Assembly: GCA_013329135.1 (NCBI GenBank)
Contig: DUKU01000080.1
Span: 446-28,226, forward strand
Direction: 5' to 3'
DNA from: Thermoplasmata archaeon
GTDB taxonomy: Archaea > Thermoplasmatota > Thermoplasmata > UBA10834
Length of the DNA stretch: 27,781 bases
Shown here: positions 2,055 to 14,353 of the stretch, piece by piece
Position numbering within the stretch: the first letter of the stretch is position 1
Layout: every line of letters starts with the position of its first letter
Notes under the pieces: model-generated
Databases searched by the model: none
Seen by the model: only the letters and a program-made list of their open reading frames with translations
What the model was told of the DNA's origin: nothing
Made by a program: the position numbers and the translations under genes

Positions 2055-2900
2055 ATGAAGCTCCTTGGCGGCCATGTATCGGTCACGGGCGGCGTCAGGA
2101 ACGCGCCCGAGCGCGCGCGTGCTGTGACATGCGACTGCATGCAGATATTCTCGAAGAACCAGATGCAGTGGGCGTCCAAGCCGCTGGACCTCGAGGACGC
2201 GGAACAGTACAAGGCGAACATGGGAGCGCACGATATCAGCGAGACCGTGATCCACGACTCATACCTGATAAACCTGGGCAGCCCGGACAACGCGTTGCTC
2301 AAGCGGTCCCGGGAGGCCTTCCTTGACGAGGTCGTGCGGGCCAAGCACCTCGGCGTCAGGAACCTGATATTCCACCCGGGCGCGCATATGGGGGCCGGGG
2401 AACAGGCCGGATTGAAGCGGGTCGCGGATTCGCTCAACTGGGTCAGGAAGGAGTTCGGCTCCGGGGATGTCCGTTTCGTCCTCGAGAACACCGCGGGCCA
2501 GGGCACGGTGCTTGGCCACTCCTTCGAGCAGCTCGCGAAGGTGATCGGCATGCTTGATGACCAGAAGAACGTGGGGATATGCTTCGACACGTGCCACGGT
2601 TACGTTGCGGGCTATGATGTCCGGTCGAGCGACGGTTACGAGAAGACCTTCGATTTGCTAGACGAAGTCCTGGGTATCGAGATGGTCAGGGCCATGCATA
2701 TCAACGATTCCAAGGGGAAGCAGGGGTCGCATCTGGACCGGCATGAGCAGATCGGGAAGGGCTTCCTCGGGCTCGAGTGCTTCGGACATTTCATGAACGA
2801 CGACCGTTGGGACGACATCCCGATGGTCCTCGAGACCCCTGAGGGTGAGAAGGGGTACAAGCAGGAGCTGAAGGCGCTCAGGTCGCTTGTCGTCAAGTGA
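2055..2900 (+). CDS. nfo: Endonuclease IV (AP endonuclease 2 family)
   Basis: LLGGHVS, IHDSYLINLGS, FHPG, LENTAGQG, ICFDTCH, HINDSK and DRHEQIG Zn-ligand motifs. Confidence 0.95.
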   Translation: MKLLGGHVSVTGGVRNAPERARAVTCDCMQIFSKNQMQWASKPLDLEDAEQYKANMGAHDISETVIHDSYLINLGSPDNALLKRSREAFLDEVVRAKHLGVRNLIFHPGAHMGAGEQAGLKRVADSLNWVRKEFGSGDVRFVLENTAGQGTVLGHSFEQLAKVIGMLDDQKNVGICFDTCHGYVAGYDVRSSDGYEKTFDLLDEVLGIEMVRAMHINDSKGKQGSHLDRHEQIGKGFLGLECFGHFMNDDRWDDIPMVLETPEGEKGYKQELKALRSLVVK

Positions 2901-4809
2901 GGCCTTTCAGTTCAAGGCCGACCTTCTCCACGACGTCCACGTCACCCGGAGGCATGACGCTCTGCACCTCCTCGATGGGGACCTGCAGCTCATCGGCCAG
3001 GAGCTTCGCGAACGAATCCTTGTCCTTGCCTCCGGGCCTCAGGACCACGAACTTCTTGGACCGGGCCTTGACCGCTGACTCGGGCCCGCACATGACCTTG
3101 CGCGCCCCCTCGTGCTCAACCTCTCCGACGGCCAGCTTGATGCTCAGCTTGTCAGAGTAGTTCCTCTTGCCCCTGATGACGAACGCGCCCTTTGCCAGGA
3201 ATTCCCCGCTCTGGGGCGTCTTGCTCACCTGTTCCGGGAGCACCCAGTACCCGCTCGCGGAGCCTATCTTGGCGTTCCAGGCCTTCGATGTGGCGACCGC
3301 GAACTCGCAAGCCTCGTGAAGTGTTATGTCGGTCACTCCCTCGCGCATCTTGACGACCACGCTCGGCGCGCCGTGCATGTCCGCGTGCGCATACCTGTCC
3401 CCTGCGTCGAGATGCTTCTTCACTAGGGTGTCGTTGCTCTTTGCGTCCTTGCCGCCGACCACGACGACTCCCTCGCTGGAGATGAACCATCTGTACCGCT
3501 CGAACCAGAATCTCTTGGACGGCTTGAGGACCTTCCTCTCCCGCTTCTCGGCCTCCTTGCGCGCCATGCCGTCGACGTCGTCCCGGGTCTCATGGATGAC
3601 CTTCAGCACTCCCTCGAGTTTCCTCCTGGCCTTCTTCGACTCCTCGTAGTACCTCTGGGCGTTCGACTCAACAGTGCCCTTGACATCGAGGATGATGGTC
3701 GAACCTTCAGCGCGGATGGTCAGGAGAGCCCTCCTAGGATCGTATCCGACGAACCCGGGTGTGTCCTCCAGGCTCACGTGCCCTTCCACCTTCTTGCGCG
3801 CGTCCGTGATGGTCTTGTCCGTCTCGGAATACCTGGCGAATAGCGCGTCCCCGGTCGCCTGCGCCTCCCTGGCCTCGTCCTGCAGCTTGATGACCGCGGC
3901 CTCCTGCTGCGTGATCCGCCTCTTGAGCTTGTCGAACTCCTTCGTATCTTCCTTGGGCTTATCCTTCTTGGTCGCTGGTTTGCGGGATATGTACTCCTCG
4001 AGCGCCTCTGAGAATGAGCCGAACTCCTGCGTGTCGAGGCCTTGGTATGCATTCATCCTGATCGGGACCACGTCCTCGGGCGCTCCGCCCCTGCTCACGA
4101 GATACCCCTTGCCAGATGCCGCTGCCTCCGCCATCAATTCTCTGATCGCCTCCAGGAGAGCCTCTGCCTGGGCCTCTCCTACCTCAGCGGCTTTGATGGC
4201 CGGCGCGATCCCTGTCCTCGCGCACAGCTCCTCGCTGTACCTCCCGCCCAGGTTGAGCTTCGTGGCGACCGTCCGCACGAGGTCCGCGTCCGAGGACCGG
4301 AGTATCTCGAGGAGTGCCGGCGCATCGATGACACTGGGGTCAGGCACCGGTGGTGGGAATGAGAACTCTCTCTTCGCCTTGACGTCCCTGTGCTTCCATG
4401 TGTGACTCGTCAGGGGCTGCACGATTGCGCCGTCCTTGACCAGTATGACGTTCCCGTCCCCGAAGAGTTCCAGGACGAGCTCGAAGGTCTCCTCCTTCTC
4501 GAGCGTGAGGACGACTATCCTGTCGAACCCCTGCTGCCTCACGCCCGCTATGCGGGCGTTCGTGACCCTCTTCCTGAGCATCATCGCGAAATCTGAGGGC
4601 TGCTGGGGCATGTCACGTGACTTCTTCGATGTGAAGAGCCACTTGCCGACATGGAAGTGCAGGAACTCCTTGCCCTCCCCCGCCCCTCTGATGGACAGGA
4701 TGAGGTGGTTCCAATGGGGATGGTACACCTTGTCGAGGTGCCAGCCTACCCGCGGCTGGAGCTCCGCGACCACGGCCATCACATCGAAGCTGCTCAACGC
4801 CTCCTTCAT
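2893..4809 (-). CDS. rqc2: Archaeal Rqc2/NEMF (NFACT family) ribosome quality-control protein
   Basis: N-terminal SSFDV..VVAEL, QQGFDRIV, LELFGDGNVIL (NFACT-N), coiled coil, WFERYRWFISSEG, GGKDAKSND, HADMHGAPS, and SKTPQSGEFLAKGAFVIRGKRNY (NFACT-R/C). Confidence 0.92.
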   Translation of the reverse strand: MKEALSSFDVMAVVAELQPRVGWHLDKVYHPHWNHLILSIRGAGEGKEFLHFHVGKWLFTSKKSRDMPQQPSDFAMMLRKRVTNARIAGVRQQGFDRIVVLTLEKEETFELVLELFGDGNVILVKDGAIVQPLTSHTWKHRDVKAKREFSFPPPVPDPSVIDAPALLEILRSSDADLVRTVATKLNLGGRYSEELCARTGIAPAIKAAEVGEAQAEALLEAIRELMAEAAASGKGYLVSRGGAPEDVVPIRMNAYQGLDTQEFGSFSEALEEYISRKPATKKDKPKEDTKEFDKLKRRITQQEAAVIKLQDEAREAQATGDALFARYSETDKTITDARKKVEGHVSLEDTPGFVGYDPRRALLTIRAEGSTIILDVKGTVESNAQRYYEESKKARRKLEGVLKVIHETRDDVDGMARKEAEKRERKVLKPSKRFWFERYRWFISSEGVVVVGGKDAKSNDTLVKKHLDAGDRYAHADMHGAPSVVVKMREGVTDITLHEACEFAVATSKAWNAKIGSASGYWVLPEQVSKTPQSGEFLAKGAFVIRGKRNYSDKLSIKLAVGEVEHEGARKVMCGPESAVKARSKKFVVLRPGGKDKDSFAKLLADELQVPIEEVQSVMPPGDVDVVEKVGLELKGLT

Positions 4810-4896
4810 GATGTCCGACTGATGTCCAGGTACGGTAATAAATGATGCGACGCCCCCTGACCTGGGACTGCTGGCGCGTCGAACCCCTCAACAACC

Positions 4897-4904
4897 TTTT
4901 AATA
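4897..4904 (+). promoter_or_regulatory. TATA box of tRNA-Thr
   Basis: TTTTAATA about 35 nt upstream of tRNA G1, preceded by an A-rich BRE-like ACAACC. Confidence 0.6.
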
Positions 4905-4938
4905 CGCAAGGCAAGATGACTTCCGGCCTAGTCAGAGC

Positions 4939-5013
4939 GCCACTGTGGCTTAGAGGTATAGCGACGCCTTGGTAAGGCGTAGGTCGAGGGTTCGATTCCC
5001 TCCAGTGGCTCCA
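4939..5013 (+). tRNA. tRNA-Thr(GGT), CCA encoded
   Basis: Acceptor GCCACTG/CAGTGGC, anticodon arm ACGCC-TTGGTAA-GGCGT, T arm GAGGG-TTCGATT-CCCTC, discriminator T followed by CCA. Confidence 0.97.
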
Positions 5014-5112
5014 TCCTTCTCGACGCGGGATGAAAGGCGGTTGGGATTTGGGAAGGGGTTTTGCCAGACGCCTGTTCCCGGGGCCATCTTCTCGGGGGCC
5101 CCGCGGCCTCGT

Positions 5113-7425
5113 CTATTCGTCCGGGGGCGGGACCGGCTCTCCGGGGTTGCCATCGCCCTTCTTGCGGTTCAGCATCAGCCACACGACGGCGAGCAGGACG
5201 ATCGCGACCACGAACAGCCCTATGGACATGTACATCAACATGTCCGCGAAGGAATCGGTGTCGTCGACCCGCGCGTTCACATCGTCCAAGTCCTGCTGTG
5301 CCTCCTCTTCCAGGGCGTCTATCATGTCCTGGAGATCCTCGATCTCCTGCAGGAGCGACTCGTTCATGCCGTCCAGCCGTTCCAGCAGGTCCTGCAGTTC
5401 CCCGGGCGTCACGTACGCGGGCGGTTCGTAGGTCACGGTGATGCTCTCGCTCGCGGAGTTGCACAGTCCGTCCTCGGCGACGACCGTGACCGTGTTCTCC
5501 CCTCCGGAGAGGGCTATGACCGCGCTGAACCCGCCTGCGCCGTCCTCCGCAGACACGCCGTTGACCCAGACCTCTGCCGACGGGTCATCGACAGTGCCTG
5601 AGACCGTCAGTGCCGCATCGTCGACCGTCGCCCCGTCCAGAGGCGAGGTGACCGCTATGGCTGGGGCGGTCGTGTCCAGGACGACCGCGAACTCGGTGTA
5701 CGCCTGGTTGCCCACGCCATCCGTAGCCTCCACGACGATGACGTTGTCCCCCTCGGCGAGCGCCACGGTGTCTGAGAACGACCCGTCCGGCATCACGGCC
5801 ACAGAGATCCCGTTGACCGTCAGCTCAGCGTCGGCGTCCGTCCAACCCGCCACCTCGGCGGAGTCTGTCGCCGTCGGGGAGTCGACGTCCTGGACCCAGA
5901 GCCCGCAGTGCGTGTCCGATTCGATCATCTTGACCACTGAGTCGCTGACGCCCGCGTCGTTGACGGATTCGATGGTCACGATGTTCAGCCCTTCCTGCAG
6001 CGCGACGGTGTTCTGCTCAAAGTACCCGTCCACATCTGCGGCGATGTCGTACGAGTCAGACTCGGTCGTGATCGACACGTCCGAGTACGGGTCGGTGTAG
6101 CCCCTCACGATGACCTCGGTCAGGGCCAAGGTCGTGCTGTCGGGTATCGCGACCTCCGTCTCAGGATCCGCGAACTCGGCCCAGAACTCCTCTATGACGG
6201 AGTTGACGGAGAACTCCGCGTACTCGTGGACCCAGTTTCCGGCTATGTCGTGGGCCCATATCTCGAGGTAGTGGTCTCCCTGCGTCAACGGGTATATCCA
6301 CTCTATCGTGACGTTGGCGTCATCGACTGAGGCGTATGGCTGAATGTCCCAAATGCCGTCCAGGACCACGTAGAAGTCCGACGAGTCCCACCCGGAGTAG
6401 AATTCCGTGTGGTCGTTCACATAGAACGACACTTCCAGGTCCGTGGAGGGTATCACCGAGCCGCCCACGGGGTACAGGTCATCTATCGAGGGCTCCCCGA
6501 CGTCGAACACCCTTATCTCGAACGGTATGCTGATGGAGTCGTTAGAGCCCATGAACCCTAGGGTGGCCCATCCCACGAACACGCCGACCCTCTCGGGCAC
6601 GCTGTACGATATGTTGAAGTCATGAACCCCTGTGCCGACAGGCGTCTCCAGGTCCGTGACCTCTATGTACCCTGGCACCCCGGCGAGCACCGACAGGGAG
6701 AAGTACCCAGGCCACCCCGTCACATCGTTCCCCAGCACCTTGACCAGGTATTGTCCGTCGTCTGGCGCTGCCAGCTCGATGGATTCGTAGGACCCTGAGG
6801 CCCCCACGTACCAGTACGGCTCCGTCAGGTCGGCGATGTTGTCCATGTCCTCGTCGTGCCAGAGCCCGAGGTCGATGTCGGGGCATCCCCAATCCTCCTC
6901 CACGGTGACGATCAGGGCGTGGCTGTCCTCGACCCAGACTGGCATGGTGAACACCGCGTCCGCGAGATCCGACACGAAGTCGCCCGTCAAGACGTCCGGA
7001 TAGATCTCCATGTCGCGGTAGTCGAACAGCTCGTAGGGGCCGTCCCCTCCTCCCATGACCTCCACGGTGTCGGTGACGGTGATGTCATACCATCCTCCCT
7101 CGACGACCCCGGTGAGTGGCACGTCCCCGGGCTGCGGGGCGAACAGCCACACGTCGGCCGGAGAGTATCCGCCCAGCCCTATCAAGGCCGTGTACCCGTA
7201 CAGGGTGTCCTGGGCGGTGTGGCCGGCCATCACTGGACAGGAATCCATCTTCTCGAACGGGTCCGTGACAGCGAATCCGCCAATCGATTCATAGTCTGCA
7301 GTCCCGTCGTCCGCCGCCACGGTCTCGGCCTGTGCTGGTGCCGATACCATTACGACGAACGAAGCCATCACCATCAGAGCCATCAGCAGGAAGCTCAGGC
7401 TCGGACGTCTACACTCACTGATCAC
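5113..7425 (-). CDS. Membrane-anchored acidic surface protein: signal peptide, PPC-like module shared with the neighbouring subtilase, ~3 Ig-like (glucodextranase-B-like) repeats, coiled coil, C-terminal TM helix
   Basis: GTG start with AGGAGG SD. Hydrophobic signal ending APAQA. Repeats of type V.G.T/VD...V.VNG......G.F...V.L.EG.N.I.V.A.D..GN. Acidic heptad stretch, TM segment MLMYMSIGLFVVAIVLLAVVWLML, then RKK. Confidence 0.85.
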   Translation of the reverse strand: MISECRRPSLSFLLMALMVMASFVVMVSAPAQAETVAADDGTADYESIGGFAVTDPFEKMDSCPVMAGHTAQDTLYGYTALIGLGGYSPADVWLFAPQPGDVPLTGVVEGGWYDITVTDTVEVMGGGDGPYELFDYRDMEIYPDVLTGDFVSDLADAVFTMPVWVEDSHALIVTVEEDWGCPDIDLGLWHDEDMDNIADLTEPYWYVGASGSYESIELAAPDDGQYLVKVLGNDVTGWPGYFSLSVLAGVPGYIEVTDLETPVGTGVHDFNISYSVPERVGVFVGWATLGFMGSNDSISIPFEIRVFDVGEPSIDDLYPVGGSVIPSTDLEVSFYVNDHTEFYSGWDSSDFYVVLDGIWDIQPYASVDDANVTIEWIYPLTQGDHYLEIWAHDIAGNWVHEYAEFSVNSVIEEFWAEFADPETEVAIPDSTTLALTEVIVRGYTDPYSDVSITTESDSYDIAADVDGYFEQNTVALQEGLNIVTIESVNDAGVSDSVVKMIESDTHCGLWVQDVDSPTATDSAEVAGWTDADAELTVNGISVAVMPDGSFSDTVALAEGDNVIVVEATDGVGNQAYTEFAVVLDTTAPAIAVTSPLDGATVDDAALTVSGTVDDPSAEVWVNGVSAEDGAGGFSAVIALSGGENTVTVVAEDGLCNSASESITVTYEPPAYVTPGELQDLLERLDGMNESLLQEIEDLQDMIDALEEEAQQDLDDVNARVDDTDSFADMLMYMSIGLFVVAIVLLAVVWLMLNRKKGDGNPGEPVPPPDE

Positions 7426-7507
7426 AACATCATCCTCCTAGATCCTCCCTCGGAAAGTGACTTGGGGGAAGCTCTCTCCTGAAGCATGGTGTAACCGAGA
7501 TGTAGCG

Positions 7508-7519
7508 TATTTAACCATT
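7508..7519 (-). promoter_or_regulatory. BRE/TATA of the surface-protein gene
   Basis: The minus strand reads GAAATGGTTAAATA. The 12-mer AATGGTTAAATA also occurs upstream of DUF134 (25068-25079). Confidence 0.6.
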
Positions 7520-7545
7520 TCACAAGCTGAAACAGGTATCTTGAA

Positions 7546-7821
7546 TCACGCTTCTGGACGAGCTAGCTGAACTGGGGCGTTTCTCAACCTGATGGCTTCG
7601 GCCTTTGTGACGAATTCCATAGTGCCAATCTGCCCTTTCAGGTAGTCTTGCATAAGCGCCAGAGCCTCTGAAGGCAACTCCTCAGTCAGCTCCACAGACG
7701 CATTCCCAAGCGCCCCCAAAGGCCCGTAGGAGAGCATCTGGGCCTGCTCTGCGAAGATGTCTTCGAGCACGGGGTTGTCGTACCAGTCCCTCATGTTACC
7801 TCCCTGCGTCGGGTCGGCGAA
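7546..7821 (-). pseudogene. Probable C-terminal fragment of an ABC-transporter solute-binding protein, fused in frame to the rqc2 remnant
   Basis: WYDNPVLEDIFAEQAQMLSYGP...LALMQDYLKGQIGTMEFVTKAEAIR resembles the terminal helices of sugar-binding SBPs. Many A/T-ending codons, unlike the flanking genes. No N-terminus present. Confidence 0.45.
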
Positions 7822-8290
7822 CCCGGTCCTCGCGCACAGCTCCTCGCTGTACTTGCCGCCGATGTTGAGCTTGGTCGCGAGTGTGCGGACGAGGTCGGAG
7901 TCGGATGCCCACAGTATGGCGGACAGCGCGCTGCCGTCCATCGTGGCCGGGTCCGGTACGGGCGGGGGGAATGCGAAATCCCTCTTCGCCTTCACATCCC
8001 TGTGCTTCCAGATGTGGCTCGTGAGCGGCTGCACTATGGTGCCATCCTTCACGAGTATGACAATGCCGTCCGCGAAGAGTTCGAGGACGAGGTCGTGGGT
8101 CTCCGCCCTTCTCGAGCGTGAGCACGACTATCCTGTCGAAGCCCTGCTGCCTCACGCCCGCCAATCGGGCGTTCGTGACCCTCTTCCTGAGCATCATGGC
8201 GAAGTCGGAGGGCTGCTGTGGCATTTCCTGCCCCCTCTTCAAGACGTAGAGCCACCTGCCCACATGGAAATGGAGGAACTCCTTGCCCTC
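7822..8290 (-). pseudogene. rqc2: rqc2 pseudogene fragment (about codons 45-200)
   Basis: About 125/156 identical residues to the intact Rqc2 by hand alignment. One extra base near 8105-8108 (CTCCGCCCTTCTC vs CTCCTCCTTCTC). Start, promoter and C-terminal two-thirds are missing. Confidence 0.93.
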
Positions 8291-8327
8291 TCTACGCAAG
8301 GCAAGATGACTTGCGACCTAGCAGTAT

Positions 8328-8399
8328 GCCACTGTGGCTTAGAGGTATAGCGACGCCTTGGTAAGGCGTAGGTCGAGGGCTCGATTCCCTCCAGTGGCT
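8328..8399 (+). tRNA. Second tRNA-Thr(GGT), probably a pseudo-tRNA
   Basis: Identical to copy 1 over 72 nt except T-loop TTCGATT>CTCGATT (T54C). Followed by CAT, not CCA. The upstream TATA is deleted. Confidence 0.85.
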
Positions 8400-8469
8400 C
8401 ATCTATCCTTCAAGGCGTTAGAAAAGGCAGTTGGGGTTTGAGGAAGGGGTTTTCGATCGCGTCCAGGGC

Positions 8470-11400
8470 TCACTCGACGACCGTTATCCGGACCTCGATC
8501 CTGAACATGTCCGCGGAGCCGAGGAACCCGAAGGTCGCGGCGCCGACATATATTCCCGGCACCGCCGGCACGCTCCACTCGATGACGAACTCGTGCGCGC
8601 CGGAGCCTACGAGGGAATCGAAGCCAGACGCGAGTATGCTCGCGCCCTGTATGCCCTGCATCACGCTGAGGCCGAAGTATCCCGGGTCTCCGGAGACGGT
8701 GTAGCCCAGCACCTTGATCAGGTACTGTCCGTCAGCGATGTCCCTGAGGGTCAGGGTCTCCGAGGACCCTCCCATGCCGACATACCAGTACGGCTCGTCG
8801 AGGGTCGCTACGCCGTCCATGTTCGCGTCGTACCACAGGCCCAGGTCTATGTCCGGGCAGTTCTCGACCTCCCAGACGGAGACGATCAGTATGCTCGCCG
8901 TCGCGACCGATATGGGCATCGTGTACGCCGCGTTCGCCAGGTCCGCCACGAAGTCGGACGAGAGCACGTCCTGGTAGATCGGTATACTGTCCCACTGCGT
9001 CGCGATGGTCGGGTCCACGCCTCCGCCGAGCACATCGACGGTCCCGTCGACCGTGATGTCGTAGTACGCGTCGATCGTGCCTGATGCCGAGTCGCCATCT
9101 GACAAGTCCACGGTCAAGTCGACCGAGGACGGGTTGAGGTCGTTCAGGACGACCCACTTGGTCACGCCATCGAACTGCTCTCTGGCCTCGTCGCCCGCCA
9201 TGAGCGGGCACCTGAGCACTATCGCGAACGGCGCCGGGGCCCCGAGGGCGTTCTCATAAGCGCCCAATGGGGCAGCTATGACCTCTTTCGGCCCACCGGT
9301 GTTGGTCCACGAGGCGAATATGCCCGCTCCCATGTACCTCTCGTCGCTCGACGCTATGCCTGTCTGGTAGAAGCCGGGACCGTACGGCGCCGCGAAGATC
9401 TGCTCGTTTGCAGCATCTGGGTCGACCGCGATAGGCGCCAACACGTGTATGTTGATGTCCGTGGGCAGCTCCTCCCAGTCGACAGATGTCATCAGGTACG
9501 CGTTCTCGTCGGGCATCTCTGAGGGCACCGACCAGTATATGCGCCAGTCGCCGACCTCGAACCTCCACCACTTGTCCGACTCGCCCACTACGTCGTTGTT
9601 GTAGGGCGTGTCGAACAGGGAGTCGCCTCCGAACTCGAACTCGTAGTCCGTCGCAGGCACATTGACCAGGATGGGTATGCTCTGCACGCGCGACTCGTCG
9701 TCGATGTACACCGCGGCTCCGTAGGATCCGACAGGCGCATCCTCAGGCACGGTCACCTTGAGCTCCCAGGACACCTGTCCGCCAGCGGGCACATCGGCCG
9801 AGAGCGAACTCTCCCAGTCCTCAGAGCCCGAGAGCCTTGCCTGGGCCCATGGGAACGGCTGGAGCGTGTAGTAGTCCAGCTGGATACTGATATCGATGCC
9901 CGCGGTCGGGACTATCGCCCTGACCCTCACGATCATGCCGTCGGTGATCCTGTCGAGCGGGTCCTTGATCATTATCTGGTTCGCGTTGCACTGGGACCCG
10001 TCCACGCTGAACCTCAGGAGCTCCCAGTTCGAGCCCTTGACGTTCAGGATGCCGTTGCCGTTGAGGTCGACCCAGTCGTGCACCTCGAGCCAGTATTCGA
10101 AGTCCTGGACATAGTCCATGTTCGGGTCGAGCTGCTCGAGCGGCATGAACATCGTGACCTTCAGCAGGTCTGTGCCTTCCGGTATGTACTCCGTCACGTC
10201 GAGCATGATGTCGCCGGTCGTCTTGGTGACCGATTCGATCACATCGGTTTCCAGTGGGTCTCTGAGGAGCAGCTGGCTCGATATGTCGACAGTGACATCT
10301 TCATCGCCGAGGTTGGTCGTCGTGACCAGCTCCACGTCCGACTCGCCTGGCAGTATGAAGTTCGGTGACATCTCGTAGCTCACGCCGTTCAGGCCTCCCG
10401 GGTACAGGGCAGCCTTCGCGAACAGCTCGCCGTCGACCATCGACACGACGCCATCGGAGCCGCTCATCGCATCAGCGTATGTGCCGGCGTTGAGCCAGCC
10501 AGCGCCCTGCTTGAACGGGTCGTAGTGCATGTCGTCCGCGGCCGCCATCAGGACTGCCTTCGCGTAGTCCTTGTCAGGCGCCCCGCCGAATGTCTCCATA
10601 AATGCCTGGTATCCGAGAGCCGCGCCTCCCGCAGTCGTCGGGGTCGCATGGCTCGTGCCGCTCCCGACCTGTAGGTGGGCAGCGCCGTTGCCTATGGTCC
10701 CCAACTCGTCCGCGATGTTGAGCGGCATCGGCTCGAGCGAGTACATGCCGGACGCGATGATCTCCGCGTTCAGCTTGCCGTTCCTGCCAGGTCCCGAGTT
10801 CGAGAACGGAGCGACATCGCCCCACTTCTGCTCGCCTGGTATGGTCTCGTATCCGAGCCAGTACCTGTACTGCATGGTGGTGCCTGCACCAACATGGACC
10901 GAGGTCGCGTCAACGATGCTGTGCACGGTGCCGTATCCCGGGCCGCCGTTGCCGGTGGACCAGAACCAGAGCGTCGGGCCCTGCATCGATATGGTGGTCA
11001 TGATCATGTCCAGCTCCGTGTAGCCCGCATCGACCGCGGTATCCGACCAGCCGTAGCTGTTCGTCACAAGGGTGGCTTCATCGCCAGTGCCAGGAGTGCC
11101 GTCGGCTCCGAACTGGGCGAACATCCAGGCGTTCACGGTGCTCCCGGTGAAGGGTATGCATATGAGTCTCGCACCGGGCGCCATGCCCCCGAGCTGTCCT
11201 CCCATGGTCAATCCCTGAGCGACTGCCGACGAGGATGTCATCGTTCCGTGGGTGCCTGCGTAAGCCCCCATGAAGGCGACCGCGTCCCCAGCCTCGGCCT
11301 TGAACTCAGCGCCGTAGGTCCAGCCGGATGCGGGATAGACATTGATCCCGTCTGCGATCCAGTACGCCATGCCGCCCGAGTAGTCAGCGAAGCCATCGCC

Positions 11401-12772: not shown

Positions 12773-14353
12773 ATGAGCGGGACGAAGGTGGACCCTTGGT
12801 CAGTACACAGAGGGGATCCGAAGAGCAAGCACTCCAAGGTCCGCAAGGTCGGCAAGTGGCTGAACAAGAGGAAGATCGGCCTCGCGCTCGGGCCGCTCAT
12901 CTTCCTCATCCTTGTGCTCATGCCAGTGCCGCAGTCGATGGCGGATGTCGCGGCTGACATAGATGCCCCTGAACGCGCGCCCCAGATCGCCCTCGGCACG
13001 CTCCTGTGGGTGCTCGTGTGGTGGGTCACCGAATGCGTCCCGCTCGGCATCGCTGCCCTGCTTCCTCCTATCATCTTCTCGATGTCCAGGATCGTCACCT
13101 GGAAGACCTCCCTCACCGCGTTCACCGATCCCATAATCTGGATATTCATGGCGGGGTTCGTCCTCGCCGCTGCGTTCAGGAAGTGGGACCTCGACCGGAG
13201 GATAGCCCTCAGGCTCGGACTTCTCTACAAGGGGAGCAACCCCATGATAGCAGCATTCTTCGTCGCCGCGCTCCCCGTCTTCATTCTGACTCTGACAGGC
13301 TCCATCACCGCTTCGACGGCGGTGGTGTTCCCGTTCCTGATTGCCTATCTGTCGATGGCAGGGGTCAAGTCCGGGGGCCGTTACAGCGAGGCGTGCATGC
13401 TGGTCCTCGCACAGGCCGCCACCGCAGGCGCGATGCTCCTGCTCATCAGCACTCCGCCGAACCTCATCGCGAAGAGCACTGCGCTTGAGTATGCGGCTGT
13501 AGACCTCACATTCCTCGACTGGCTCATCGTGGGGACCCCTCACGCGATAATCGGCCTGTTTGTCACCTGGATAGTCGTCTTCAAGGTGCTGAAGCCTGAG
13601 GAGAAGACGGTGGCGGCCGACAAGTCGAAGATGATCGCAGTCGCCAAACAGCTAGGCAGGATGAGCAGGGGCGAGAAGGTCGTCGCAGGCCTTCTCGTAC
13701 TGGCTGTGAGCCTCTGGATATTCCCCTCGATAGTGAAGGTCGCCGCCGGGTATAATCCCAGTCTGCAAGGCCTGTCCAGCGACCTGTCCGTCATCATGCC
13801 CGAGGCGATGCCCGCGGTCCTCGTGATACTGCTGGCGGGTCTCATCAGGGTCAGGGATGAACCCGTCCTGAAATGGGACGAGATTGCAAGAGGCATCGAT
13901 TGGAACGTGGTCTTCCTGTTCGGCGGAGGCATCGCGCTCGGGATCGGGTTGGCGGACAGCGGGTTCGCCACTTGGCTCGCGAACGGGGTGGCTGATGCGA
14001 TGGGAGACAACCCGAGCGCGTGGGGGATATACGCCATCTCGTGCGTACTCGGTTTCGTCCTGACATATGCCGCGTCCAACACCGCCGCTGCCCTGATATC
14101 GTGCCCCATCGCGGCAACGCTCGCGATTGGCGCCGGGTTCACTGGCGCAGAGGTACTGGCGCCGATCGTCGGCGCCGGGCTGGCCTGCTCCATATCGAGT
14201 GCAATACCGTCGACCACGCCTCCGATGGCGATAGTCTACAGCTCGGGCTATGTCAAGATCTGGAGCATGTTCAAGGTCGGGATCATCTCCGACACGCTCA
14301 GGCTGAGCGCTCTCATAGTCCTCGGTCCATTGTTCACGAACTTGTTGGTCTGA
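12773..14353 (+). CDS. SLC13/DASS family Na+:dicarboxylate or sulfate symporter
   Basis: WWVTECVP, IFMAGFVLAAAFRKWDLDRRIAL, ISTPPNLI, WNVVFLFGGGIALG, YAASNTAAA and STTPPMAIVYSSG motifs, with many TM segments. Confidence 0.92.
   Translation: MSGTKVDPWSVHRGDPKSKHSKVRKVGKWLNKRKIGLALGPLIFLILVLMPVPQSMADVAADIDAPERAPQIALGTLLWVLVWWVTECVPLGIAALLPPIIFSMSRIVTWKTSLTAFTDPIIWIFMAGFVLAAAFRKWDLDRRIALRLGLLYKGSNPMIAAFFVAALPVFILTLTGSITASTAVVFPFLIAYLSMAGVKSGGRYSEACMLVLAQAATAGAMLLLISTPPNLIAKSTALEYAAVDLTFLDWLIVGTPHAIIGLFVTWIVVFKVLKPEEKTVAADKSKMIAVAKQLGRMSRGEKVVAGLLVLAVSLWIFPSIVKVAAGYNPSLQGLSSDLSVIMPEAMPAVLVILLAGLIRVRDEPVLKWDEIARGIDWNVVFLFGGGIALGIGLADSGFATWLANGVADAMGDNPSAWGIYAISCVLGFVLTYAASNTAAALISCPIAATLAIGAGFTGAEVLAPIVGAGLACSISSAIPSTTPPMAIVYSSGYVKIWSMFKVGIISDTLRLSALIVLGPLFTNLLV

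Follow-up and report, generated by a model that had tools for sequence, protein, structure and literature searches.

The stretch analysed here (the window; 27,781 nucleotides (nt)) is part of contig C11 of G000, a metagenome-assembled genome (MAG) of a Thermoplasmata archaeon from groundwater that comprises 1.7 Mb in 208 contigs. Within it we describe a duplicated locus made up of the gene for the NFACT-family protein Rqc2 (rqc2), a gene for tRNA-Thr(GGT), and a gene for a surface protein. Sequence comparison with related genomes indicates that the DNA between equivalent points of the two tRNA genes, a unit of 3,389 bp, is foreign, that both switch points fall inside the tRNA copies, and that the resident DNA consists of rqc2 with its leader region and, beyond the insert, of a tRNA 3' flank, a subtilase gene (p1323) and a symporter gene. 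We believe it likely that this arrangement arose when the resident locus underwent a single crossover inside the tRNA gene with a circular DNA that carried the same locus of another species. All coordinates are window positions; G-labels denote genomes of the family, and L-labels denote related loci and metagenomic contigs.

The order seen is rqc2, leader 1, the first tRNA gene (copy 1), a foreign trailer (flank 1), the surface-protein gene p770, a remnant of a tyrosine integrase gene, a fragment of rqc2 (rqc2'), a foreign leader (leader 2), the second tRNA gene (tRNA'), flank 2, and p1323 (Table 1). Comparison with other genomes sorts these parts into two kinds. Resident rqc2 is 97% and 95% identical to its orthologs in G008, the nearest relative, and in G001; together with leader 1 it shares 97% nucleotide identity with G008, and all relatives examined have it divergently paired with tRNA-Thr. 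Flank 2 and the 3' end of p1323 are likewise resident, with 90-92% identity to G008 (90.3% and 91.7%, respectively), whereas rqc2' is foreign and reaches only 80.7% against G008 rqc2, which is lower than the value for flank 2 and the p1323 3' end (Fisher p=0.0003). Leader 2 is foreign as well and is identical at 32/32 positions to G011 and G007, compared with 91-94% to leader 1, G008 and G001, while flank 1 had no match in any relative examined. As in G001 and G011, copy 1 encodes a CCA end (5011-5013); tRNA' and G008 continue with CAT (8400-8402). By this comparison, copy 1 is a hybrid of a resident leader and a donor-type 3' trailer with encoded CCA. Within the genus the encoded CCA is polymorphic, and at this locus it marks the donor-type trailer.

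The gene order in relatives bears on which of the two surface-protein genes belongs here. After tRNA-Thr(GGT), five congeners (G002, G004, G005, G006 and G010) have a short subtilase gene of the p1323 type and then the symporter gene, three genomes (G007, G011 and G009) have the symporter gene directly and no subtilase, and a further three (G001, G013 and G018) have one long subtilase (1,843-1,963 amino acids (aa)) that consists of a p1323-like part and a p770-like C-terminal extension. The exchangeable segment starts at the 3' end of the tRNA and stops about 130 nt before the symporter gene. The p1323 protein has 85% aa identity to its counterpart in G002, similar to the flanking genes, and 64% to those in G004-G006 and G010, and it occupies the same position before the symporter. 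Both where p1323 lies and how similar it is to its relatives are in keeping with vertical descent, and the gene is therefore resident.

To place rqc2', we extracted rqc2 from 24 genomes of the family and then from 43 metagenomic contigs and built codon alignments. Over the 156 codons that align without gaps (Rqc2 residues 45-200), rqc2' differs from rqc2 at 30 amino acids and contains no in-frame stop, and a 1-nt insertion at 8104-8107 shifts the frame and hits one further codon. There are 92 nucleotide differences, with 59 at third, 15 at first and 18 at second positions. The Nei-Gojobori dN/dS between the copies is 0.152 (dN 0.119, dS 0.784; 155 codons), compared to 0.12-0.16 for true orthologs at similar distance. 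When branch-specific omega was estimated from distance triplets with bootstrap ranges, the branch of rqc2' itself gave 0.20 (95% bootstrap 0.11-0.38; dN 0.06, dS 0.29), and working sister lineages gave 0.25 (0.14-0.44). A fragment cut at both ends cannot be under selection, and time as a pseudogene thus makes up no more than about a fifth of the rqc2' branch. In the maximum-likelihood (ML) tree, rqc2' falls outside the G000/G008/G001 clade (clade support 94.3/100 by SH-like approximate likelihood ratio test (SH-aLRT)/ultrafast bootstrap (UFBoot)) and is sister to a clade of G007, G011 and L068 (SH-aLRT 80.7, UFBoot 92), and the approximately unbiased (AU) test rejects a sister pairing of the two copies (p=0.0003). 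These analyses indicate that rqc2' was still functional while it diverged in another lineage and that its inactivation is recent. The initial annotation of this DNA, made from the letters alone, had counted about 31 differences in 156 residues, one frameshift, no internal stop and many third-position changes, and had proposed that the piece diverged under purifying selection in a related lineage and was inactivated recently. Its counts agree with ours (30 differences plus the codon hit by the insertion), and its view of the origin of rqc2' is upheld by both comparisons that it had proposed, the dN/dS between the copies and the phylogeny with Rqc2 of relatives, the latter with moderate support for the sister clade.

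Both duplicated genes on the far side of the insert are probably dead, judging from what they have lost. The direct repeats 4205-4677 and 7817-8290 are 81-86% identical, the tRNA copies 4939-5011 and 8328-8400 match at 72/73 bases, and the homology extends beyond rqc2 over 33 nt of the tRNA leader and about 55 nt of the 3' flank. Relative to copy 1, the junction 8290/8291 is a deletion of about 224 nt, which removed codons 1-44 of rqc2', the intergenic region, and both promoters, including the tRNA TATA box (TTTTAATA in copy 1). One open frame with both NFACT_N and NFACT-R_1 is found at 2893-4809, while 7817-8290 covers only Rqc2 residues 45-200 and is frameshifted, making it a pseudogene piece and not an NFACT/Rqc2 member. 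In addition, tRNA' bears a T54C change in the T-loop (8380), and C54 is unique to it among 39 tRNA-Thr(GGT) genes at related loci (0/38 others); copy 1 is identical to the tRNA-Thr(GGT) of G008, G001, G011, G003, G013 and G018. Lacking a TATA box and carrying T54C, tRNA' is probably silent. The 168-aa "hypothetical protein" annotated at 7546-8052 in public assemblies joins Rqc2 residues ~124-200 to the C-terminus of the integrase; it is a chimera and not to be treated as a gene.

Within the insert, p770 is foreign and derives from a long-type subtilase that has lost its protease. It retains the signal peptide (aa 1-62), which matches those of subtilases, a beta-rich C-terminal region (Glucodextran_B, Ig-like), a C-terminal membrane anchor and the promoter region, with a TATA-like box near 7508, but the peptidase S8 domain is absent by Pfam. 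That domain is present in p1323 (PF00082, E=1e-18), so the subtilase label of the initial annotation applies to p1323 and not to the gene after the first tRNA (5113-7425). The deletion junction, at 7239/7240, is clean and in frame: window positions 7160-7239 align to a G001-like long gene (L066 positions 3292-3371), positions 7240-7521 align to the first 62 codons of the long gene and 97 nt upstream of it, and 3,081 nt (1,027 codons; L066 211-3291) of the long type are absent between them. Positions 7240-7521 share 73% identity with the 5' end of the G001 long subtilase gene and the DNA before it (G001:C127), and p770 has 70% aa identity to the G001 long type, or 75% in the comparison that gave a dN/dS of 0.16. 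G000 and G001 are about 95% identical elsewhere, and because the divergence far exceeds this, p770 is not the vertical counterpart of the G001 gene. We therefore regard p770 as an imported, protease-less derivative that, by its predicted features, remains an intact, anchored ORF (open reading frame) of secreted type. The resident p1323 has a signal peptide and the S8 domain and no C-terminal anchor, and the two proteins share a homologous domain at 46% identity. Through the import, the long type may have come to exist here in two pieces, the anchor part in p770 and the protease part in p1323. In the long-type proteins of G018, G013 and G001, the anchored C-terminal part and the protease are united in one chain.

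Between the p770 promoter and rqc2', positions 7549-7818 encode the C-terminal end of a tyrosine integrase, about 89-90 codons fused in frame to rqc2'. The remnant is 58% identical to residues 327-406 of a 415-aa PF00589/PHROG-1 integrase of G018 and matches the C-terminus of P0042, a 416-aa metagenomic integrase, at 74% identity over 89 aa. It retains the likely catalytic Tyr (MRDWYD), while the rest of the catalytic domain is gone; no intact tyrosine recombinase gene lies within the insert, and no other copy of this integrase was found in G000. Searches of genome-contig and viral-contig collections with the stub gave no confirmed relatives, PHROGs and Pfam gave no match to the stub alone, and the PDB held no sequence relative of a full-length homolog. 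Members of the family are patchily distributed in two other genera of the family (12/31 genomes), at the edge of element-like regions with their 3' ends against host genes (PCMT/TraB, ProRS, Metallophos). We observed that these integrases (L053, L055, L131 and the P0042 contig; 415-470 aa) border regions of small unknown genes with no tRNA nearby; in its gene list, P0042 adjoins a serine resolvase and small unknown genes. Host-type homology, here the subtilase promoter, resumes 25 nt past the integrase stop codon, and so the element probably lay just upstream of the donor's subtilase gene. A split at an attachment (att) site of the SSV type was considered for this junction and rejected: integrase codon ~327 and Rqc2 codon ~201 meet without shared sequence, the stub is too short, and the full-length homologs are unsplit in chromosomes. 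Targeting of a tRNA gene by the integrase finds no support in where its homologs lie.

The order of the foreign segments is a circular permutation of the normal locus (rqc2, leader, tRNA, trailer, subtilase, element), which is exactly what a single crossover with a circle yields and what a linear fragment cannot produce. Starting from a locus of rqc2, tRNA-Thr(GGT), the short subtilase gene and the Na/sulfate symporter gene, a circular DNA of about 3.4-3.6 kb or more would have recombined by one crossover inside the 75-nt tRNA gene. Its cargo, from another species of the genus, would have comprised the 5' part of rqc2, the tRNA gene between its leader and trailer, a long-type subtilase gene (complete or already reduced to p770) together with its promoter, and the adjoining end of an integrated mobile element with its tyrosine integrase gene. 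The integrase stub stands at the sole non-homologous junction, and therefore the circle was most likely an element excised with neighbouring host DNA. We suggest that the vehicle had been a mobile element residing about 100 nt ahead of the subtilase gene in the donor, that it left together with host DNA by an aberrant excision of the lambda gal/bio type, and that it integrated via homology at the tRNA and not at its own att site. Integrase codon ~327 would have been joined to rqc2' codon ~201 either by the aberrant excision itself or by a later deletion. The crossover may have been homologous or assisted by a recombinase, and some archaeal integrases are known to catalyse homology-like recombination (PMC8371274). 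After integration, the ~224-nt deletion would have removed the start of rqc2' and both promoters, to be followed by the frameshift and T54C.

Several observations weigh against this account. The AU test allows rqc2' to be basal to the G000/G008/G001 clade (p=0.32), and the support for its sister placement is moderate. A donor search with rqc2' in metagenome contigs of the Joint Genome Institute (JGI) gave best matches of 78-83% identity and no donor genome, and a single donor for rqc2' and p770 is an assumption. On the resident side, identity to G008 drops from 97% in rqc2 to 91% in flank 2 and the p1323 3' end (Fisher p=0.0008), and this side may have a recombination history of its own. The insert was not found at the locus of G008, a genome that is 55% complete and whose contig ends 228 nt past the tRNA. 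Finally, no member of the integrase family turned up in the 11 other genomes of this genus, and no tRNA gene lies within ~10 kb of the five full-length homologs; because the homologs are not tRNA-linked and none was found in those genomes, it is a single remnant that links the element to this locus.

The most serious alternative to a captured locus is a true tRNA-targeting integrative element, with a copy of tRNA-Thr and captured flanks as its attP site and a tyrosine integrase of its own; deletions would later have left no more of it than p770, the integrase stub and rqc2'. Near-identical tRNA repeats do flank the insert, an integrase remnant lies inside it, and tRNA genes are common targets of archaeal integrative elements (PMC8371274). 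The five integrase homologs, however, have their 3' ends against protein-coding host genes, and the 3' end of the remnant abuts a donor-type subtilase promoter and not a tRNA. The 73-nt tRNA repeats differ at one base, and the homology continues at 81-87% into both flanks, which fits homologous rather than site-specific exchange; a site-specific att duplication would not yield repeats that extend into diverged orthologous flanks on both sides. We consider such an element unlikely.

Less probable still is the reading of the initial annotation, in which rqc2', tRNA' and p1323 were imported as one block downstream of a resident rqc2, tRNA and p770. The first part of this stands, as rqc2' is foreign and adjoins tRNA' and p1323. 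It is also consistent with such a block that the identity of p1323 to G002 (83-86% at the nucleotide level) is near that of rqc2' (82.6%), and that the close relative G001 has the long type, to which p770 belongs. The subtilase of the proposed block is resident, however, and the foreign partners of rqc2' are p770 and an integrase remnant that the initial annotation did not see. Beyond p1323, the symporter and the genes after it follow as resident DNA, arranged as in the five congeners, and G008 has flank 2 and the p1323 3' end after its tRNA at an identity that rqc2' does not approach. On the other side, p770 is only 70% identical to the G001 protein in spite of the ~95% identity of the two genomes elsewhere, flank 1 is without a match in any relative, and the integrase stub joins the p770 promoter to rqc2', tying both together. 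Import of p1323 as part of the block is thus quite improbable. The suggestion that the slot downstream of tRNA-Thr is variable fared better, as it is empty, filled by a short or a long subtilase gene, or rearranged in relatives, with the order of tRNA, p1323 type and symporter in the five congeners.

A tandem duplication of rqc2, tRNA and surface gene in place, followed by decay of the second copy, would explain the tandem layout and the homologous domain of p770 and p1323, and it could be reconciled with a basal position of rqc2' in the tree. We regard it as highly improbable, because a doubly truncated fragment would evolve neutrally and rqc2' instead has an omega (0.20, upper bound 0.38) like that of working orthologs, because the sister pairing of the copies is rejected, and because the genes stand in permuted order and an integrase stub marks their junction. 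A second rqc2 or tRNA copy was not found in any other genome or contig examined, and tRNA-Thr(GGT) is single in 21/21 related loci.

We also considered whether the assembly itself is sound, a concern raised in the initial annotation. Contigs from Logan for three groundwater samples (runs X1, X3 and X9) bridge every junction outside the tRNA genes (X1, 5464-8195; X3, 4961-7054, 7033-8195, 8168-8322 and 8350-10500; X9, 4939-5428), so that the junctions of rqc2' are each spanned by single contigs, and depth is even over the insert and flanks in all three. These contigs were built with k=31, break inside both tRNA copies and alone cannot link the leaders to the flanks; that link comes from assemblies with longer k. 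Four other public assemblies, one from JGI and three from the European Nucleotide Archive (ENA), are colinear through both tRNA copies without gaps at 99.83-99.97% identity, three of them over 10.5 kb and the fourth over 6.9 kb, and two are MEGAHIT contigs with k127 and k141, which is longer than the 73-nt repeat. A MAG of 208 contigs whose k=31 contigs break in the repeat could in principle join two strains or species in tandem, or thread a free 3.39-kb circle into the chromosome at the shared tRNA, but given the colinear assemblies and even depth, either error is very unlikely.

Table 1. Features of the duplicated rqc2/tRNA-Thr(GGT) locus, in window coordinates.
Feature	Position	Strand	Basis or remark
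rqc2, full length (NFACT family, 638 aa)	2893-4809	-	Pfam NFACT_N + NFACT-R_1
Leader 1, resident divergent promoter and leader region	4810-4938	.	96.9% identity to G008 over 129 nt
TATA-like box TTTTAATA	4897-4904		within leader 1 region
tRNA-Thr(GGT) copy 1, presumed working	4939-5013 (73-nt repeat part 4939-5011)	+	ARAGORN
Flank 1, foreign version of the tRNA 3' flank	5014-5112	.	~80% like flank 2 over ~55 nt
p770, 770 aa, Glucodextran_B + Ig-like domains	5113-7425	-	Pfam
p770 promoter and 5' region, donor chromosomal DNA	7426-7521	-	similarity to region upstream of G001 long subtilase
Tyrosine integrase remnant, own stop at 7546-7548	7546-7818	-	similarity to C-termini of full-length integrases
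rqc2' fragment (Rqc2 residues 45-200), fused in frame to integrase remnant	7817-8290	-	codon alignment
Two overlapping frames containing the second rqc2 piece	7546-8052, 7796-8299	-	
Leader 2, foreign tRNA leader	8291-8327	.	32/32 identity to G011, G007
tRNA-Thr(GGT) copy 2 (tRNA'), probably silent	8328-8400	+	ARAGORN
Flank 2, resident tRNA 3' flank, no encoded CCA	8401-8469	.	90.3% identity to G008 over 72 nt
p1323, resident short-type S8 subtilase, 1323 aa	8470-12441	-	Pfam Peptidase_S8
Na/sulfate-type symporter gene	12773-14353	+	Pfam

Some further features of this region were apparent in the comparison. A conserved G-rich motif of ~30 nt that ends in a T-run lies between the tRNA and the stop codon of the convergent surface gene in both flanks (5035-5065 and 8422-8455). 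G001 and G008 have it after tRNA-Thr as well, and the motif may represent a shared terminator. In G003 (L036, G003:C34:264000-281900), tRNA-Thr(GGT) is followed by genes that in G000 are found on different contigs (C55 and C101), whereas L065, whose rqc2 is near-identical to that of G003, has a p1323-type gene in this position. The 3' side of the tRNA is therefore also a rearrangement breakpoint in the genus. L065 (2-5599) furthermore has, after the tRNA and the p1323-type subtilase, a second gene that is 66% identical to p770 residues 315-766, giving two paralogous surface genes in tandem without a duplication of the tRNA.

We believe that the locus offers a cleanly resolved natural example of the swapping of cell-surface genes between species of uncultured archaea, with a conserved tRNA gene as the homology anchor and the stub of a mobile element as the mark of the likely vehicle. 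The hitch-hiking piece of rqc2 serves as both a built-in clock and a tag, as it records that the DNA was functional elsewhere until recently and indicates the source clade. For annotation, it follows that one tRNA-Thr(GGT) gene is probably dead, that the 168-aa "gene" is an rqc2-integrase chimera, and that p770 is a deleted subtilase and not a protease. It is tempting to speculate, although we find the idea rather doubtful, that integrative elements with an integrase of this Thermoplasmatota family carry entire chromosomal surface-protein loci from one species to another, in a manner similar to specialized transduction, by excising with adjacent host DNA and re-entering by homology at tRNA-Thr, such that surface protease alleles get stacked and shuffled. 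If this were true, locus-moving elements would here have brought together, in a new pairing, a scaffold with a membrane anchor but no protease (p770) and a protease without an anchor (p1323).

With regard to known systems, the insert resembles both tRNA-integrated elements and the capture of host genes in specialized transduction, and by its parts it qualifies neither as a tRNA-targeting element nor as a split integrase of the SSV type. It shares with archaeal tRNA-integrated elements, which include pNOB8-type and "suicidal" SSV-type tyrosine integrases, the placement of foreign DNA between direct repeats of a tRNA, a tyrosine recombinase gene at the edge of the insert (here a remnant), and deletions that then trap the element (PMC8371274). 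Unlike in those elements, the repeat is a whole tRNA gene with diverged orthologous flanks and not an exact att sequence of 40-60 bp, such that the insert duplicates a whole, diverged locus; the stub also faces the promoter of a protein gene and not a tRNA, and its homologs are not tRNA-linked. In SSV-type integration the int gene is split at an att site matching the target, and int(C) keeps the catalytic domain (PMC8371274), but the break seen here is not a partition into int(N) and int(C), as the stub is without nearly the whole catalytic domain. Lambda gal/bio specialized transduction combined with Campbell-type integration would be a close analogy, in that an element is fused at one end to neighbouring host genes. 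A Campbell-type single crossover in captured homology gives a tandem, permuted duplication of the host locus. The differences are that the host here is an archaeon (Thermoplasmatota), that no virus or intact element was identified, and that the excision is deduced from one junction. The sequential displacement of effector/immunity modules of the Vibrio cholerae type VI secretion system (T6SS) (PMC5361080), an example of the stacking of displaced alleles, is similar in that a new allele of a variable gene for surface or competition functions comes to lie next to the resident allele at a conserved anchor, leaving two "alleles" in tandem. Compared with that description, the anchor here is a tRNA gene, the import duplicates both the anchor and the gene on its far side, and the organisms and the proposed mechanism differ. 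We conclude that this is an ordinary kind of gene import and no new kind of system, one whose steps are unusually clearly readable.

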